A stretch of DNA of 64,000 nucleotides from Escherichia phage UPEC06. Positions 27,690 to 42,602 of the stretch are shown here, piece after piece; positions within the stretch are counted from its first letter, which is position 1; each line of letters starts with the position of its first letter. The stretch lies in sequence record MW250786. The stretch is one strand, 5' to 3'. The notes beneath the pieces are model-generated. The model ran no database searches. It saw nothing but the letters and a program-made list of their open reading frames with translations, and was not told where the DNA came from. Position numbers and translations under genes: made by a program.

Positions 27690-27981
27690 TTTTAACCCCC
27701 TTCATTTTATCTCTTAAACTTTGAGCATCCCACGTATAACCTGAGGAGATACCTTTTTCACGTTCACTATCTTTGAACTTGCAAATTACAGATTTTGCTT
27801 CACCATCAACAACAACCGCATAACTGTTGTAATAATTGTGTTGCTTCTTGCAAAATTCGTGTAACTCCTTAACCTCTATTGGCATCAGAGAAGGTAGATT
27901 TTTGTATCGCTTTGTCTGATCATCTTCACCATCTCCGCAACCAACAAGAAGAAGTATACATAAAATGATTAACCTTTTCAA
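27682..27981 (-). CDS. predicted lipoprotein
   Basis: Signal peptide with lipobox LLVGC. Confidence 0.45.
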   Translation of the reverse strand: MKRLIILCILLLVGCGDGEDDQTKRYKNLPSLMPIEVKELHEFCKKQHNYYNSYAVVVDGEAKSVICKFKDSEREKGISSGYTWDAQSLRDKMKGVKNE

Positions 27982-28129
27982 TAGCTACCCCCAAAATATT
28001 TTGTAATCTCTACTGCAAATATTGTCCCAAGTATAAACCATGTGGCACTTAGTACGTTGAAGGGTAAAAACCTTGATCCTGTAAGAGAAACCATAATGAA
28101 AAACGTTACAAAAATCTCTGGAGAAATCA

Positions 28130-28531
28130 TCATTGTTTGATAGTCCCCTTGGCGATCATCTCGTCAAGTTCATCTTCCGCACGACACATAATCTGATAGA
28201 TAGTCTCTGGATTGTTTAAGAATTCTGTGTACTTTTTGATACGACAAACTAAACGTGCACGAACTTTACGCTCACGGGCCACATGATTAAAGTAATGTCC
28301 CTTTTGTCTGTAGATCCAAGCATAATATACAGTTTTTGCTCTATTGCGATCACAACCTAAACGTTCAGCCAACAGAGTGTAAGGGTCATTATTAGTGGGA
28401 CCAAACAAAAATATTTCTGCAAAACTTTCCTTCATGATACGAGATTCTTCATCCGTGATTCGCGGACATTCTTCAGAACCGTAGCGTGGGGTTTTAGTGG
28501 CATTTGGCTTCTTAGGGTATACTTTACGCAT
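28130..28531 (-). CDS. hypothetical protein
   Basis: ORF with GAGGAG RBS. Confidence 0.45.
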   Translation of the reverse strand: MRKVYPKKPNATKTPRYGSEECPRITDEESRIMKESFAEIFLFGPTNNDPYTLLAERLGCDRNRAKTVYYAWIYRQKGHYFNHVARERKVRARLVCRIKKYTEFLNNPETIYQIMCRAEDELDEMIAKGTIKQ

Positions 28532-33192: not shown

Positions 33193-33218
33193 AAAACCAC
33201 CCCGAAGGGTGGTTTAAA
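33193..33218 (-). terminator. intrinsic terminator downstream of DNA polymerase gene
   Basis: On - strand: AACCACCC-TTCG-GGGTGGTT followed by TTCTTTT. Confidence 0.55.
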
Positions 33219-33221
33219 TTA

Positions 33222-35852
33222 TCAGTGGCACGCCCCCCAGTTCATCCCTGTGAGGTATTCACCTGTTATGTGTACAGGAGATTTCATCATTCGTGCTGCT
33301 TGCTCTACACAACGAACAACCATCTCTCCAACTGGACAATACATGATCGTGTAGATTCCATTCTCATCAGGATCACACTTAAACTTCCCTTCTTTCACAC
33401 AATGACCATCCAAGATCATTTTCTTAGCCAAGCAAGCTTCTACAAATTTCTTCGCGTCAGCTTCGTTGTCAAAGGTCCAAGTCTTCTTGAACTTGTGCGG
33501 CACTTCAAGCTGGTATTCATCATGATAGTAAATGATACGGCGAACACCCTCATCATACCAACCTTTCTTGACCAACTGCCAGTGCAGGAGGATACCCACC
33601 AAGTCAAACAGTGCAGCACCACCATTCTGCTGATAAGCATTAAGCAATGAGTGTTTGGAACGAGTGTAGATCTTACGTCCATCAAGACCGTAGATGAATC
33701 GCTTACCGTTAGCTTCCCAAAACTTCTCTAATGCTTCTTTACGACCTTTCAAGCCGATGTTGCTATCCCAGAATGCGTCGATTACTGCCTGGGCTTTCTC
33801 AAGAGTGATTCCCAGCATTGATGCAATCTTCGCCGCCTGCGCCCCGTACATGATTCCGTATGTCACGCCTTTACCTTCACCACGAGAAACCTTCTTCCCT
33901 GCCGCTTTGGTATACGCTTCTGCGTTTCGGGAGTGAGCATCTCCAGATTCCATGATACGAAGATAAGCGCCACCATCGAAATCATACGCGCCCCATGCCG
34001 CGATCATACCTTCCAAGTTTGAACCGTCGATACCTACCTGATATTTACCCTCGGAGGCTCTAAACAGTTCACGCATCTCTTTACCGAGAAGAACTTTCTC
34101 ATCCGGCTTAGGTACGTTTGCTACGATCGTATGCTTACGACGACCTGTGTTAGTTATTCCACTATAACGGGCCGGAAGTTTACCGTCAACCCGTAGACGT
34201 GGATGGTTAAGCCATCCGGTATCAACCTTCTCTTCTTTCAGTGGGTCAAGAACAGATCGTCGGTTACGTAAAGACAGCCATTTAACAATCTGTTTAGCCA
34301 TTTCACCATCTACTCGCTCAAGGTTAGGGCAAAGACCCTGCTGATCCTTAAGTTGTGGAGATGTTGGTAATGCACGGGCTTTCTTACGGAAGAACTTGAA
34401 CATCTTTTCTTTATCGGACCACTGTTTAGGGGTGATCGATAAGCTTTTCAGAATCAGATCACGATACTCCGTCTGATCCAAATCTTCAATATATTGACGA
34501 ACAATCAGGTCAACCTCACTATCTGGACGTTGTTTCTTGAACTGATCTTTAGTTGCATCCTTTGTACGCCAAATTGTTGGAATCCACCCTGCATCACGGA
34601 TCAGGAACTTCTTAACGTCGTCCTGGTTACCAATACGCATCGGGATCATAATGTCCGGCATCTTTTGTTCTTTGATATCCATCAAAGCACGAGCCATATC
34701 TTCCGGCGGCAAAGGAACAAGCCCTTGCTGCTTAACGTTTTGTGCACGGATAAAATCACCCATTTTGGATTCATCTTCTACACCGTGTTCAACACAATAC
34801 TTGATCGCGGCGGCAGTAAGAGATCCGTCAGCCTTAAACGGCTTACTTGGTGCACCTTTAAACTCTAATGCTTCCCAATTGATATTATAACCTAACTTCT
34901 CTAACCATTTCCAACCTGTACCGGAAAGAGATCCATCACCCTTGAAAGGCTTAGATGGGAATGTCGGTTGTGCTGATTTCGACATTTCTTTCTTCGGTAA
35001 CTTAGGTTCAACCTCTAACTCAATGTCTGTCATCATCTTATCGATACGATCACGGAGCTTGAGTGCTTTTTCTTCATCAAATGAAACACCCTGAATCTCT
35101 TGCTCAATCATCAGGTAGTCGGTCAGCATACCTCGACGCAAGGCATTCTTCCAGTTGATCATTTTAAACTTCTTCTGATCTTTGTCTGTTTCATCCTTAA
35201 ACATGAAGCGTTTATCATCGGGCATGGATTCACAAGAGATCTCTTTCATCAGAGCATCCCACACCATTTCGTTGATAATTACGTCTTCAATAATACGATC
35301 GCAATATTTCCAAAGTGGAAGGCCACGCCAATCTTCAATCGCCACTTTCTGGTTGGCTACTCGCATACCCCAAGCTTCAAGCCCGTGAGGGCCTACAGGC
35401 TTCATTTTACCTGTGACTGGGTTCTTTACCATCTCGGGACAACCACGAGGCAGAGGGCGATCTGGATACAATGTACGAGACATTGACAGTGTATCAAAGA
35501 TGGTCACTTGTTTACCATTAATCGTACCCATGCAACCAGGGTCTGCAAACATATCGTAAGTTGTTCCAAGCATCTTCTTAAACAACTGGAGGTCGTAGCC
35601 GAAGATGTTGTGGATAGCAATTGCCTTAGGCTCTGTGACAAACCATTCGTTTAATTCTTCAATAGTGCGAATCTTAAAGTTTTTACCTTTAGATTGGATA
35701 AATTTAACAGCTTGATCGTAACCTTCCCGTTGGGGATCAAGAAAGATGTTCCAGTTATCTTTTTTATACTCTTTAAACAGGACGCAGTGAATGAGATCAA
35801 CCTCTGTCAACAGGCCGTTAGCTTCCGCATCTCCAATAAATAAGCCTTTCAT
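33222..35852 (-). CDS. family A DNA polymerase with 3'-5' exonuclease domain
   Basis: Exo motif FIGDAEANGL; pol motif A DGSNLEGMI, motif B KGVTYGIMYGAQ, motif C YYHDEY; start at 35852 with AAGGAGA. Confidence 0.85.
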   Translation of the reverse strand: MKGLFIGDAEANGLLTEVDLIHCVLFKEYKKDNWNIFLDPQREGYDQAVKFIQSKGKNFKIRTIEELNEWFVTEPKAIAIHNIFGYDLQLFKKMLGTTYDMFADPGCMGTINGKQVTIFDTLSMSRTLYPDRPLPRGCPEMVKNPVTGKMKPVGPHGLEAWGMRVANQKVAIEDWRGLPLWKYCDRIIEDVIINEMVWDALMKEISCESMPDDKRFMFKDETDKDQKKFKMINWKNALRRGMLTDYLMIEQEIQGVSFDEEKALKLRDRIDKMMTDIELEVEPKLPKKEMSKSAQPTFPSKPFKGDGSLSGTGWKWLEKLGYNINWEALEFKGAPSKPFKADGSLTAAAIKYCVEHGVEDESKMGDFIRAQNVKQQGLVPLPPEDMARALMDIKEQKMPDIMIPMRIGNQDDVKKFLIRDAGWIPTIWRTKDATKDQFKKQRPDSEVDLIVRQYIEDLDQTEYRDLILKSLSITPKQWSDKEKMFKFFRKKARALPTSPQLKDQQGLCPNLERVDGEMAKQIVKWLSLRNRRSVLDPLKEEKVDTGWLNHPRLRVDGKLPARYSGITNTGRRKHTIVANVPKPDEKVLLGKEMRELFRASEGKYQVGIDGSNLEGMIAAWGAYDFDGGAYLRIMESGDAHSRNAEAYTKAAGKKVSRGEGKGVTYGIMYGAQAAKIASMLGITLEKAQAVIDAFWDSNIGLKGRKEALEKFWEANGKRFIYGLDGRKIYTRSKHSLLNAYQQNGGAALFDLVGILLHWQLVKKGWYDEGVRRIIYYHDEYQLEVPHKFKKTWTFDNEADAKKFVEACLAKKMILDGHCVKEGKFKCDPDENGIYTIMYCPVGEMVVRCVEQAARMMKSPVHITGEYLTGMNWGACH

Positions 35853-35925
35853 TTTTTCTCCTTCTTTAAACTCCAACTAGACTAAAACAAAGCCCAGCCG
35901 GAGGTATTACCCTTCGGCTAGGTTA

Positions 35926-36018
35926 TCAAAAGTGCAGGTATCCTTCATCAATAAAGTAAAGCATAACTAAAATAGCGAATACCCCACCTAAGAAGATTAA
36001 ACCCAGTAAAGTAGGCAT
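35926..36018 (-). CDS. 30-aa hydrophobic micro-ORF
   Basis: MPTLLGLIFLGGVFAILVMLYFIDEGYLHF; TGATG overlap with upstream gene; too short for the track. Confidence 0.25.
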   Translation of the reverse strand: MPTLLGLIFLGGVFAILVMLYFIDEGYLHF

Positions 36019-36263
36019 CAGTCTTCTATTACCTCAAATTCACTACTAAAAGCTACAATAGTCTCACCGTAGCCCATGTTCAATCGGGCAGTTGTAGGTT
36101 TGCCATTCCTAGATAGATAGTACACCCTCGCTTCGTAAATGTCACCAACTTTTACACCGTAATCCTGTAGGTCTTTGTTATTGATATCTTTATTTTCAGC
36201 ATTGATTATTCGAACACTGCTGATCTCTGAGTATACAGAATTATCTTTCATAGGTATTACCAA
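36018..36263 (-). CDS. hypothetical small protein
   Basis: ORF in operon. Confidence 0.35.
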   Translation of the reverse strand: MVIPMKDNSVYSEISSVRIINAENKDINNKDLQDYGVKVGDIYEARVYYLSRNGKPTTARLNMGYGETIVAFSSEFEVIED

Positions 36264-36745
36264 TCCTCTTCTGTTTGTTCATACTCGGAAGGGGTGATGA
36301 AGTAATTCTGACCCCGCTTGCACTGGTTGAAAGTCCCAATATACCAAGTGCCGATATCCATATTGATGAAAGTTTCTTCGTGAACAAGGATGAAATCAGC
36401 AAGATTATTGTCTGACCGTTGAGTTGCTAATAAAATATGCTCAAAATCTGCTAATGTCATGTTGTAACAGAAACCATCTTCGTCCTCCATAACCGCAACA
36501 ACAGAACTACGCCCTTGAGTGAATTGACGAAACTGTAAACGTAAATGACGATGTTCATGTTCATTCGTCTTCACCTTTTTCCGATTTTCGAAATATTCTT
36601 CGGAATAATTTGGATGCCTTAATTTCAGCTTTTCGATCTCTTCGGTAGAAAGAGCATCCTTATCCCAACCAGTAAACCATTTACCGTTATCATTAAATAC
36701 CGCAGGGTATTTACGCTTACTCAAATCTTTAAACATTTGAATCAT
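36257..36745 (-). CDS. hypothetical protein
   Basis: ORF in operon. Confidence 0.4.
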   Translation of the reverse strand: MIQMFKDLSKRKYPAVFNDNGKWFTGWDKDALSTEEIEKLKLRHPNYSEEYFENRKKVKTNEHEHRHLRLQFRQFTQGRSSVVAVMEDEDGFCYNMTLADFEHILLATQRSDNNLADFILVHEETFINMDIGTWYIGTFNQCKRGQNYFITPSEYEQTEEDW

Positions 36746-37055
36746 CTCCTTCAGCTAGGCTACGAATATACTTGAAAATTTCTTCATGATCATTACCAAA
36801 TGCAACATATCCATTTTCAGCATCAAGTCCATAATTATGCTCTATTTTCTCTAAAAAGCAATTTCCGTAAGTAATTTTTTCAACCAGGGGATCGGATTCT
36901 GAAAAACCCAACCCAAAAGCTTTCCAGTGCTCACGTTTAAGCTCCACGTATTCCCACGGTTTATCTCCATCGTGGAATAACACAAGGGTGTCTTGATCTT
37001 TCTTTTCTACATTGACATGACCATAAAATCCACTGGGCGATTTGTTAAATTTCAT
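36729..37055 (-). CDS. hypothetical protein
   Basis: Start at 37055 (GGAGAAG upstream) preferred over track start 37115. Confidence 0.35.
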   Translation of the reverse strand: MKFNKSPSGFYGHVNVEKKDQDTLVLFHDGDKPWEYVELKREHWKAFGLGFSESDPLVEKITYGNCFLEKIEHNYGLDAENGYVAFGNDHEEIFKYIRSLAEGDDSNV

Positions 37056-37377
37056 AATCTTCTCCGTAAATATCTTTAATTTTTGAACTGAGGTATCCAG
37101 GATCGCTACCATCATACCACACTTCTACGAAAACCTTTTGGGAATCCTTCACGATCTTTGCCCCTGCTCTTTCAACCTCCTTGAAGAAAGATTGCAAGAT
37201 GTGATCATCTAACAGGTTTACCCCATAAGCATCGTGGAGGGATTTTTCATCGTGAACATACACAACCATCTTACCATCATACGTAACTTGAATGTAATGG
37301 TCATCTTCCCAAGTAATAGCCGGAGAATCCGGCTCAAGCTTTGCAATAACACCAATAGTCAATCGGTTGTCACTCAC
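37045..37377 (-). CDS. hypothetical protein
   Basis: ORF in operon. Confidence 0.4.
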   Translation of the reverse strand: MSDNRLTIGVIAKLEPDSPAITWEDDHYIQVTYDGKMVVYVHDEKSLHDAYGVNLLDDHILQSFFKEVERAGAKIVKDSQKVFVEVWYDGSDPGYLSSKIKDIYGEDYEI

Positions 37378-38603: not shown

Positions 38604-39320
38604 TTATTTGTTGTATTGATAAATTGCTTCAGCCAAGCCCCGTGGGGTTAATGACCGGATCATCTTAGTTCTTGCTGACTTACCCCCCAACTTATTCTGC
38701 TGATCTGACCAACCAGGTGCAACAGGAACCGGAGAGGTTTTTGGAATTATAAACCCATTCCCTGTCCAAAGTCCAGTCTTTTTAGGATAAGCATCCCGTG
38801 GTTTAATGTACTGAGGAAAATAAGGGTTAACATCATTTACCGGAAGATAACCACCATATTCCCAAGGGTTGAAATATACCGTAGGCTTTCGCCATTGTCC
38901 AGCTAAAACACTAACGGGGTTCTCGATCATGTAAGGACAATCAAAAACAAATTCCGCAAGCCAAGCTGCAATCTTTGCAGTTCTTACCGCCTTGATCTGG
39001 AAGAAAGGATCTTTTGCTTTCTTTGATGCAAAGTGACGCGAACCACTGACAGCCATATCAGTACATGGAGGGTAGGCAAGGATCAGGTCCGGTGATGGCA
39101 ATCCTAAGTTCTCTACATTTTCCATCCATTCAATATCGATAAAAGCGTTAACGTAAGTGATGTTGGGATGAATTTCCTTTACACCTTCATAATCCCCGTG
39201 ATCAGCATCGTCATAGTTGAAGCAGTAGCATTTGTGCCCTGCCTTCGCCCAGGGAAGAACATCAATCCCTGAACCAGAAAAGAGACTCCAGATAATCTTT
39301 TTATTCATCGTAGCATCCAA
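38604..39320 (-). CDS. C5-cytosine DNA methyltransferase-like catalytic-domain protein (short, no obvious target-recognition domain)
   Basis: Motif I-like LFSGSG, motif IV-like PPC, motif VI-like IENP, QWRK; only 238 aa. Confidence 0.4.
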   Translation of the reverse strand: MDATMNKKIIWSLFSGSGIDVLPWAKAGHKCYCFNYDDADHGDYEGVKEIHPNITYVNAFIDIEWMENVENLGLPSPDLILAYPPCTDMAVSGSRHFASKKAKDPFFQIKAVRTAKIAAWLAEFVFDCPYMIENPVSVLAGQWRKPTVYFNPWEYGGYLPVNDVNPYFPQYIKPRDAYPKKTGLWTGNGFIIPKTSPVPVAPGWSDQQNKLGGKSARTKMIRSLTPRGLAEAIYQYNK

Positions 39321-39613
39321 ATAGTGGTTAATTTACAAATACACCAGAAAAGTCCGATCAGTGTAGCTAAAGTAATAACACAAGTCAATGCTATAGGTAA
39401 GAATATCGTCATAATCACTGCAAAGACTGAAATACCTATGCTTGCAATAAGATCCGGCACGAAATAGTGAAATGGATCTCTTGCCTTTTTAATGTTGTCC
39501 CATGTTATTACTACGGAGCTAAGGACGAGCCAGAATAAAAAGTACAAAATGCAAGGAAATAAAGTCATGTGTGACTTAACCATATCAAACCACATGTTGT
39601 AGAATTCAATCAT
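39305..39613 (-). CDS. small membrane protein
   Basis: Three hydrophobic segments. Confidence 0.4.
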   Translation of the reverse strand: MIEFYNMWFDMVKSHMTLFPCILYFLFWLVLSSVVITWDNIKKARDPFHYFVPDLIASIGISVFAVIMTIFLPIALTCVITLATLIGLFWCICKLTTIWMLR

Positions 39614-39933
39614 TCAGTTTTCCTCGGTACAGATGCAATAACAGCCTTTTCGACGAGATATACAATAAATCTCCCAATCCCTGCCAAAAGGAGAGCAAAG
39701 ACTGTAAAAGGCAACCCATAAATAAGAACCAAAATCATCAATCCAAAACAAGCGGAAAACAGGACTTCTGTGCCCAGCCACATCTTGGAGTAATTGATAT
39801 AATTATGCCGCAATTTTAAAAACAGTCCAGCAATAGAACCTACAGAAAATATACCAATCAACCAAGGTGCGGTTACAAATTGACGGCTAAACGCCTCCCA
39901 AAAAACAAAAACATTAATGATTGCTTCGATCAT
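39610..39933 (-). CDS. small membrane protein
   Basis: Hydrophobic throughout. Confidence 0.4.
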   Translation of the reverse strand: MIEAIINVFVFWEAFSRQFVTAPWLIGIFSVGSIAGLFLKLRHNYINYSKMWLGTEVLFSACFGLMILVLIYGLPFTVFALLLAGIGRFIVYLVEKAVIASVPRKTE

Positions 39934-41119: not shown

Positions 41120-41383
41120 TTATTCTCCCTTGTTCAATGTGGATACAAATTCGATATATGTTTCTGCATTTCGCTTATGGTAAATCCGAGGATAGCTGTC
41201 GGTTACTTTGCTGTATTTGATGTATCGCTCAAGCATACCGACAATGCCACCAATGGAATGCACAACAACGCCTTCTTCACCAACAAAGGTAACAACCTCT
41301 ACGAATGGACTATTGTCATAAGAGCGATTTACAATCAGGTCGCCGACTTCAAATTCGATTTTATCATTTTGTGAGTAGTGCAT
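41120..41383 (-). CDS. hypothetical small protein
   Basis: Start at 41383 with AAAGGAGAA; longer track ORF (to 41803) would overlap the helicase gene. Confidence 0.4.
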   Translation of the reverse strand: MHYSQNDKIEFEVGDLIVNRSYDNSPFVEVVTFVGEEGVVVHSIGGIVGMLERYIKYSKVTDSYPRIYHKRNAETYIEFVSTLNKGE

Positions 41384-41448
41384 TTGTTTCTCCTTTCTGT
41401 TTGGTATGGGAGAAGTATAGGGGAGTTTAGGAGGGGTGTCAATAGAAA

Positions 41449-41467
41449 AACCGCCCGAAGGCGGTTT
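41449..41467 (-). terminator. intrinsic terminator downstream of helicase exon
   Basis: On - strand: AACCGCC-TTCG-GGCGGTT followed by TTTTCTATT. Confidence 0.5.
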
Positions 41468-41477
41468 ATTTTTAGGA

Positions 41478-42602
41478 TCAGAAAGGCGCGTCATCGTCCC
41501 AATCATCCGGCTCTGTGTCCGGCACATCAGGAATATCACCTGCGGATTCAACGATACTTTGTTGCTCCCATGTAGGTTCTTCTGAAGGTTGTTCCATTTC
41601 TTCCATAACCTTCTTGATCTCTTCCTCTTGCTCACGCAGGAAGTTATCATCCGGCTCAGGAATATCTTCCTCTTTAATATCTGAACGAGTGAGATCACTG
41701 TTTTGTTCAGACAGAGGTTGAATCTCTGCTGCCTTAGGCTTGAAGTCTGGAGAACGATGATCATCTTCTGGATGAGCGGCATACCACTCACGAAGAGTTT
41801 CATAAGGACTCTCTAAGAAGCCCTCTGGCGGTTCCAGATAATCACCCGTGTCAATGTCATAGAACACAGGGAATTTACCAGCACGACCGTGTTTACGGTC
41901 ATCCAGAATAACAAAGTAAGAAGTGTTACGTTGTTTCATCGGGAGTTCTGGATCTTTGTTACGTTCAATACCCCACATATAATAAGTGTTTCGCATCATT
42001 GCACGACTGCCAGCAAACTGCGCTGACTGGACTTGACCACCAAATTCATGAGGCTTGCCAGATTCAGGCTTATTAAGGTGACAGAAGCAATAATAAGTAA
42101 AGCCAAGTTCTTTTGCCAGCTTAGAGATCTCATCCGAGAATCGTTCCAGTTCCTGGTTAGCTTCGGAAGCACTCATACCTTGCACAAGACGAGTGATCGG
42201 GTCAATAAAGATATCTTCACAACCTTCTACAATCACTGCGTGACGGATAGCACCTTTCAGTTCATCCCATACTGCACGACCATAGTTGTTATAATAGATG
42301 ACACTATCACCAACCTCATCTGTAGCTTTGATCAGTTCTTCTTGCTTAAAGTAGCCACGTTGCCCTTCAAATACTTCATTACCCCAAATGTCACGGAAAG
42401 TTCCATCTTCTTGAGGAATCATTACCTTTTCTGCGTTAACAAAGTCTTTATGATAACGCTTACCTGCGATCTTTTTACAGGTAATTTCGTTCTCTTCTTC
42501 AAACTTAAACACCGCAGCTTTTGACTTCTCAATACCCGTGATGTGTTCAACCATTTGGTTAAGAAGTTCAGACTTGCCCATTTTCACCGTTATGTTCAGC
42601 AA
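41478..42602 (-). CDS. T7 gp4-like (DnaB-family) helicase, C-terminal part beginning inside Walker A (putative exon 2)
   Basis: Begins ...VKMGKSELL; CFCHLNKPESGKPHEFGG resembles the T7 gp4 helicase motif as recalled; acidic tail ending DDWDDDAPF. Confidence 0.7.
   Translation of the reverse strand: MLNITVKMGKSELLNQMVEHITGIEKSKAAVFKFEEENEITCKKIAGKRYHKDFVNAEKVMIPQEDGTFRDIWGNEVFEGQRGYFKQEELIKATDEVGDSVIYYNNYGRAVWDELKGAIRHAVIVEGCEDIFIDPITRLVQGMSASEANQELERFSDEISKLAKELGFTYYCFCHLNKPESGKPHEFGGQVQSAQFAGSRAMMRNTYYMWGIERNKDPELPMKQRNTSYFVILDDRKHGRAGKFPVFYDIDTGDYLEPPEGFLESPYETLREWYAAHPEDDHRSPDFKPKAAEIQPLSEQNSDLTRSDIKEEDIPEPDDNFLREQEEEIKKVMEEMEQPSEEPTWEQQSIVESAGDIPDVPDTEPDDWDDDAPF

Follow-up and report, generated by a model that had tools for sequence, protein, structure and literature searches.

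Immediately before the DNA polymerase gene of Escherichia phage UPEC06 lies a 30-codon open reading frame (ORF) which, as comparison with related phages indicates, is a protein-coding gene under purifying selection. The stretch analysed here (the window) comprises 64,000 nucleotides of record MW250786. On balance, the ORF is probably a real gene that is translated into a single-pass inner-membrane microprotein of 30 residues, one that binds a larger membrane protein; the functional part of this reading is drawn by analogy. The gene ranks among the small accessory genes of phages and does not belong to the replication machinery, and its product is a so far uncharacterised case of a well-known kind, the small single-helix phage proteins.

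The microprotein gene and its junctions

The following features define the gene and its 5´ context:

35926..36018, minus strand: 30-codon microprotein gene read from the sequence (ATG 36018-36016; stop TGA 35928-35926, followed by an in-frame TAA)
36016..36020, minus strand: TGATG stop/start overlap of 1 nt, the probable translational-coupling junction with the upstream gene
36018..36251, minus strand: upstream gene, 77 aa as annotated in relatives, with an ATG at 36251
36031..36035, minus strand: GAGGT Shine-Dalgarno-like motif in the context alignment, 13 nt 5´ of the microprotein ATG

The ORF translates as MPTLLGLIFLGGVFAILVMLYFIDEGYLHF. A preliminary description of this DNA had reported a 30-aa ORF beginning in a TGATG overlap just upstream of the polymerase gene. 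The ORF is present as claimed, on the minus strand (a point left unsaid at the time), and its stop is separated from the polymerase ATG (35852) by 73 nt. The A of the microprotein ATG (36018) is the final base of the upstream TGA (36020-36018), with the upstream gene extending over 36263/36251..36018 on the same strand.

The overlap between the start and the upstream stop is kept across three differing upstream gene contexts. It takes the form TGATG in the window and the E. coli clade, where the 77-aa gene lies upstream; TGATG or TAATG in CR3-type Certrevirus phages, where a 155-aa phrog_7983 gene takes this position; and ATGCCTGA on the IMG/VR contigs L016 and L018, which have a gene of about 70 aa there. 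In Certrevirus, there is also an 8-nt overlap between the microprotein stop and the start of the following gene. The 77-aa gene bears a weak likeness to the small gene preceding the microprotein gene on L016/L018, and to orf065 of Pectobacterium phage P7_Pc (29% identity over 65 aa, with the ends aligned); such a kinship is suggestive only.

A spacing of 13 nt between a Shine-Dalgarno motif and its start codon is further than optimal. Certrevirus and L016/L018 have GAGG or GGAG 7 nt 5´ of the ATG, compared with 13 nt here. Since the nearest GAGG in UPEC06 is thus poorly placed, termination-reinitiation is probable in this phage: ribosomes finishing the upstream gene would re-initiate at the overlapping AUG. 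Folding of the mRNA around the start revealed no significant or start-occluding structure (z 0.02). A programmed -1 frameshift fusing the ORF to the 77-aa protein was rejected, because a TGA stands in the ORF's frame six codons ahead of the ATG and the interval contains no X_XXY_YYZ heptamer. A known RNA element was likewise discarded, as Rfam finds nothing in the region.

Predicted properties of the product

The peptide is predicted to form a single transmembrane helix, in agreement with the preliminary description. An uninterrupted hydrophobic helix spans residues 3-23 approximately and is followed by a polar tail (24-30). The Kyte-Doolittle 19-residue mean is 2.5-3.0, summing dG on the biological hydrophobicity scale gives -2 to -4.5 kcal/mol, and AlphaFold models one helix over residues 2-29 with a pLDDT of 93. 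The short peptide would insert in the inner membrane, probably in an N-out/C-in orientation. This topology is suggested by the positive-inside rule, as the basic residues of the family lie solely in the C-terminal tail (R28; R26; R26 and K27), and it is uncertain because the UPEC06 peptide itself has zero basic residues.

Two other classes of membrane protein were considered and rejected. Cys is missing from the peptides of the window, A73 and W70, and the Cys residues found at position 11 (A5-4/A7_1) and position 17 (Certrevirus) are unaligned and without lipobox context; with no conserved lipobox [LVI][ASTVI][GAS]C, a lipoprotein is discarded. A holin, antiholin or spanin is disfavoured by the neighbours, which are hypothetical genes, a methyltransferase and a DNA polymerase and not a lysis cassette, and by the length of 30 aa compared with the typical 60-150 aa.

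The view that a single-TM microprotein is unusual in this setting finds no support. Small proteins, including small membrane proteins, are treated as commonplace in phages (PMC11323111, PMC12648545), and the window has another coupled ORF of this type. This is an ATG ORF of 51 aa (27978-28133, minus strand) that encodes two hydrophobic segments and overlaps neighbouring genes by 4 nt at both ends; it is probably, from its sequence, another small membrane protein gene falling under the 60-aa cutoff.

Distribution and family

The microprotein region is 97-99% identical to Escherichia phage vB_EcoM-LTH01 and 92-94% identical to phages A73, W70, A7_1 and A5-4, all five being Vequintavirinae. The four latter phages, Irish isolates, have been described as a 'Septuagintavirus' clade (PMC11370258). 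The ORF is intact, with 30 codons, in LTH01, A73, W70, A7_1, A5-4, SS-2025, CR3, CR8, PBES02, vB_ExiM_F5M1E and KaOmega, and on L016 and L018. The equivalent ORF of Enterobacter phage SS-2025 comes from a record without annotation. By tblastn, the Certrevirus ORF was located in CR3, CR8, PBES02, vB_ExiM_F1/2/4/5M1E, vB_PdiM_F5M2A and KaOmega, and the carriers in this genus infect Cronobacter, Enterobacter, Klebsiella and Pantoea. The contigs L016 and L018 (142 and 152 kb) carry two further variants, recovered in an IMG/VR scan with a DNA pattern built from both clades.

The peptides of the E. coli clade and Certrevirus share 11 of 30 residues in register. Eight positions are invariant in all eight distinct peptides (M1, P2, G6, L7, F9, L10, V13 and Y21), giving the family signature MP-x3-GL-x-FL-x2-V-x7-Y. 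The in-register BLOSUM62 score between clades is 46-52, a value reached by only 11-48 of 100,000 shuffles that preserve the hydrophobic/polar layout. When Certrevirus peptides were searched against the window by tblastn, the microprotein ORF was the top match (E 1.6e-4). Furthermore, the ORF occupies in every case the interval that separates the phrog_7983 gene (162 aa here) from the polymerase gene. On these sequence comparisons, the ORFs of the two clades are homologous.

Further searches returned nothing related. In phmmer, run against 1.84 billion representative proteins, the query itself was the sole match, and sequence searches of Pfam, PHROGs, NCBIfam, PADLOC and the PDB gave no match to the peptide, even at E <= 10 where allowed. 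No match was found in E. coli genomes and plasmids, and tblastn with the family detected no paralogue in the window. An IMG/VR peptide-pattern scan with the family alignment yielded 98 pattern matches, of which 0 were confirmed; no related IMG/VR loci were found via the neighbouring 162-aa protein; and the single match of a DNA-pattern scan of JGI metagenomes was a chance one inside an unrelated 1078-aa ORF. As far as these sequence searches reach, the microprotein forms a small orphan family, with members only in Certrevirus and in Vequintavirinae of the 'Septuagintavirus' type, all of them phages of Enterobacterales. Pectobacterium phage P7_Pc, Av-05 and a Klebsiella relative lack the gene, which is therefore dispensable and accessory.

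The ORF, said earlier to be missed by a 60-aa ORF cutoff, is present in some annotations: GenBank already lists the microprotein as a hypothetical protein in LTH01 (WWT49239.1), in UPEC06 (QUL77321.1, the identical peptide) and in the vB_ExiM_F*M1E phages, and UNA03625.1 too is a 'hypothetical protein' entry for the gene or its orthologue. Among the Certrevirus records, only the vB_ExiM ones annotate it, and it is intact and unannotated in A73, W70, A7_1 and A5-4. The existing entries give no family, no function and no recognition that the ORF is conserved over phages of E. coli, Cronobacter, Enterobacter, Klebsiella and Pantoea.

Purifying selection on the ORF

A short ORF in a spacer could be a chance one, untranslated and functionless. 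ATG ORFs of at least 30 codons arise in 4.2% of 5000 dinucleotide-preserving shuffles of the 168-nt gap, UPEC06 lacks a well-placed Shine-Dalgarno, and the annotators of A73, W70, A7_1, A5-4, CR3, CR8, PBES02 and KaOmega left the ORF uncalled. However, an equally hydrophobic ORF appears in just 0.06% of the same shuffles, and the microprotein is the most hydrophobic among 49 small ORFs in the gaps between crude gene calls of the window. The decisive evidence that the ORF is a protein-coding gene is its conservation under purifying selection. It has 30 codons at 13/13 loci examined, which encode 8 distinct peptides. The three distinct E. coli-clade alleles differ at 13-20 of 90 positions, and 9-15 of these are third codon positions (15/19, 9/13 and 10/13 of the differences).

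In the ORF, pS is 0.48-0.67 and pN 0.05-0.07, and dN/dS (Nei-Gojobori) is 0.05-0.07 in the E. coli clade; within Certrevirus the ratio is 0.04-0.05. Conservation in related phages, proposed earlier as a check on the ORF, is thus positive (an intact 30-codon ORF with dN/dS 0.04-0.07). Frame and length are held over saturated synonymous divergence, stops are present in all five other frames of the locus, and the similarity of the proteins between clades has a p of about 1e-4 to 5e-4. The chance reading is effectively refuted by these comparisons and is left with next to no probability.

The ORF also differs from its flanks in synonymous divergence. In the E. coli clade, its pS is far above that of the flanks (0.04-0.06 in the 77-aa gene and 0.22-0.24 at the 5´ end of the polymerase gene; Fisher p 1.7e-5 and 1.2e-3), and Certrevirus follows a like trend (0.54 in the microprotein gene vs 0.24-0.29). 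The changes fall mostly within the first 66 nt (35953-36018). Mosaic exchange of old alleles may account for this high divergence, the sample being small.

Gene cluster and transcription unit

A packed minus-strand cluster ends with the microprotein gene as its last cistron, and the other landmarks of the cluster are as follows:

38604-39320, minus strand: DNA methyltransferase gene, in the cluster that ends with the microprotein gene
39305-39613 and 39610-39933, minus strand: two overlapping genes for multi-TM proteins of 102 and 107 aa, in the same cluster
41414..41442, minus strand: sigma-70-like promoter match TTGACA-17-TATACT (11/12), a consensus match only

The rest of the cluster consists of small hypothetical genes. 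The assignment of the microprotein to a replication operon, as made in the preliminary description, is not borne out by this gene content, nor by the terminator-like hairpin (dG about -20 kcal/mol) that stands before the polymerase gene. Because this hairpin begins 3 nt past the microprotein stop, the gene would lie outside the polymerase transcription unit. From its sequence, the match at 41442-41414 is a plausible candidate for the start of a ~5.5-kb unit ending with the microprotein gene, and the cluster is possibly early.

Immediately before this promoter match there is a hairpin (41467-41448) that is terminator-like on both strands. The pair, at 41414-41467, sits inside a mechanically listed ORF (41120-41803), and its sequence makes it a likely boundary between transcription units. 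Gene content is mosaic among close relatives: an extra 94-aa gene is found at window position 36259 in A73, W70, A5-4 and A7_1, and the gene at 36732-37115 is lacking in A5-4 and A7_1.

The downstream hairpin and the DNA polymerase gene

Between the microprotein gene and the end of the polymerase gene, these features were identified:

35893..35922, minus strand: hairpin CCTAGCCGAAGG-GTAATA-CCTCCGGCTGGG, beginning 3 nt past the microprotein stop
35884..35891, minus strand: T-run TTTGTTTT after the hairpin, forming with it an intrinsic-terminator-like signal
35858..35863, minus strand: AAGGAG, Shine-Dalgarno of the DNA polymerase gene, 5 nt before the ATG at 35852
33222..35852, minus strand: Family A DNA polymerase gene, uninterrupted in the window
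33197-33212, with a T-run at 33196, minus strand: second terminator-like hairpin, CCACCCTTCGGGGTGG + TTTTCTTTT, directly after the polymerase stop

The first hairpin has a 12-bp stem with one mismatch and a 6-nt loop, and the sequence next after it is CTTTGTTTT. Its dG is about -20 to -21.2 kcal/mol (z -3.7), and 0/200 shuffles fold as well. Together with its T-run, it is the strongest such signal on the minus strand of the window, although a strict terminator scan did not flag it. The hairpin is conserved in the E. coli clade, where a single stem change (G->A) replaces G-U by A-U pairing; in Certrevirus it is absent after the microprotein gene. As the second hairpin lies directly past the polymerase stop, the polymerase gene is bracketed by two terminator-like signals.

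On the minus strand, a sigma-70-like match of at least 9/12 was found neither in the interval from the terminator-like signal to the polymerase gene nor immediately upstream. A sequence within the 3´-terminal part of the ORF (TTGATG-18-GATAAC) was set aside as a candidate polymerase promoter, since it scores 8/12 as counted by eye, below the scan threshold. Upstream of the Certrevirus polymerase gene there is a conserved promoter-like element, TTGATC-N17-TATCCT (L004:2440-2500, L009:2765-2830 and L018:3865-3925), and the E. coli clade has the terminator-like hairpin in its place.

The polymerase gene itself is variable in structure. In LTH01 it contains a 772-nt insert (L001:6280-7051) exactly at the YYH|DE motif, which corresponds to window positions 33521-33522. 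This insert aligns at full length with the Rfam group I intron at 42.9 bits (E 1.9e-9), under the gathering score of 50, and an HNH-type ORF lies within it. Split polymerases are annotated in A73, W70, A5-4, Av-05 and a Klebsiella relative; that of A7_1 is intact, as in the window.

Comparison with known small proteins and leader peptides

Bacterial proteins of 30-50 residues, such as MgtS, MgtR, KdpF, AcrZ and MgrB, bind larger membrane proteins (PMC12648545). The targets are Mg2+ transporters for MgtS and MgtR, KdpABC for KdpF and AcrB for AcrZ (PMC12648545). They belong to the same size class as the microprotein (MgtS 31 aa, MgtR 30 aa, KdpF 29 aa, AcrZ 49 aa and MgrB 47 aa). Proteins like MgtS, KdpF and AcrZ share with it one TM helix, a very short N-terminus and a short polar C-terminal tail, and their ORFs are also often overlooked by routine annotation. 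There is, however, no detectable sequence relationship between the microprotein and the MgtS-type proteins, and the latter are encoded by separately regulated stress genes, whereas the microprotein is phage-encoded and apparently coupled in a polycistronic cluster.

The type I toxins (TisB, DinQ, Hok, Ibs and Ldr; 19-50 aa) are small hydrophobic single-helix inner-membrane peptides, as the microprotein is predicted to be. They have no sequence similarity to it. Their loci stand alone, have an antisense RNA and give transcripts with long structured 5´ UTRs, whereas the microprotein is encoded by an operon-internal, apparently coupled cistron; a check for this layout found no Rfam RNA in the microprotein region. 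Finally, leader-peptide attenuators such as the pyrBI leader resemble the locus in that a short ORF stops at the base of a terminator hairpin, with a major gene directly downstream. Unlike a pyrBI-type leader, the microprotein has a sequence under purifying selection that is conserved where no terminator follows, and no antiterminator alternative was found at its locus.

Proposed function

By analogy with the MgtS-type proteins, the peptide, once inserted in the membrane, would bind through helix-helix contacts to a larger membrane protein shared among Enterobacterales or among these phages. A partner of such wide occurrence is suggested because phages of five host genera all keep the gene, although the genes around it come and go. 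The two multi-TM neighbours were rejected as candidate partners, as tblastn finds them only in five E. coli-clade phages and the microprotein is more widespread. Specific residues are conserved in the family beyond mere hydrophobicity, which fits a defined packing interface. The small membrane effector raised in the preliminary description is a conjectural role.

An unlikely alternative is that the peptide acts on the bilayer itself, as a toxin- or holin-like pore former or depolarising peptide resembling TisB or DinQ, with no specific protein bound, and serves host shut-off, superinfection exclusion or lysis timing. Its size and architecture, with about 21 hydrophobic residues and a short polar tail, match this idea; DinQ is described as a 27-aa single-TM inner-membrane peptide (PMC3567139), and no sequence match points to a specific partner family. 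Against these points stand the position of the gene, adjoining the polymerase gene in a possibly early cluster with no lysis cassette, and its apparently coupled expression within an operon, with no separate promoter or type I antisense-RNA layout. Moreover, the retention of specific residues (G6, L7, F9, L10, V13 and Y21) is a better fit to a packing interface.

It is also conceivable, but very unlikely as the main role, that the ORF works in cis and the peptide is a by-product: a ribosome at the ORF stop would mask the 5´ arm of the hairpin, leading to read-through into the polymerase gene, and in Certrevirus the ORF would merely hand ribosomes to the next overlapping gene. The stop standing 3 nt ahead of a strong hairpin with a T-run is consistent with such a mechanism, as are the overlaps of both ORF ends with neighbouring genes in Certrevirus; with no sigma-70-like match of at least 9/12 before the polymerase gene, dependence on read-through is possible. 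However, a role of this kind does not need the amino-acid sequence, which contrasts with the dN/dS of 0.04-0.07 and with a peptide recognisably conserved between clades whose synonymous divergence is saturated. Certrevirus lacks the hairpin and conserves the peptide equally well, and no alternative antiterminator structure was detected. In the E. coli clade, the cis effect might exist as a secondary function.

Combining the protein-binding reading with such an effect, the microprotein can be imagined as a broadly conserved phage effector whose target, perhaps a transporter, a protease or a membrane-bound defence effector, is an inner-membrane protein common to E. coli, Cronobacter, Enterobacter, Klebsiella and Pantoea; in the E. 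coli clade, translation of the microprotein would also tune read-through of the terminator before the polymerase gene. This combination is quite unlikely; if true, accessory-gene translation would be linked to the onset of replication.

Implications

As single-helix small proteins without a known function are common in phages, the general picture of these viruses is unchanged. Nonetheless, a 30-codon ORF skipped by most annotators of this phage group is, on the sequence comparisons, a real gene under selection, found in phages infecting at least five genera of Enterobacterales, which supports an annotation correction for CR3, CR8, PBES02, KaOmega, A73, W70, A7_1 and A5-4, and the microprotein gene is a reasonable and cheap candidate for studies of small membrane proteins in phages.
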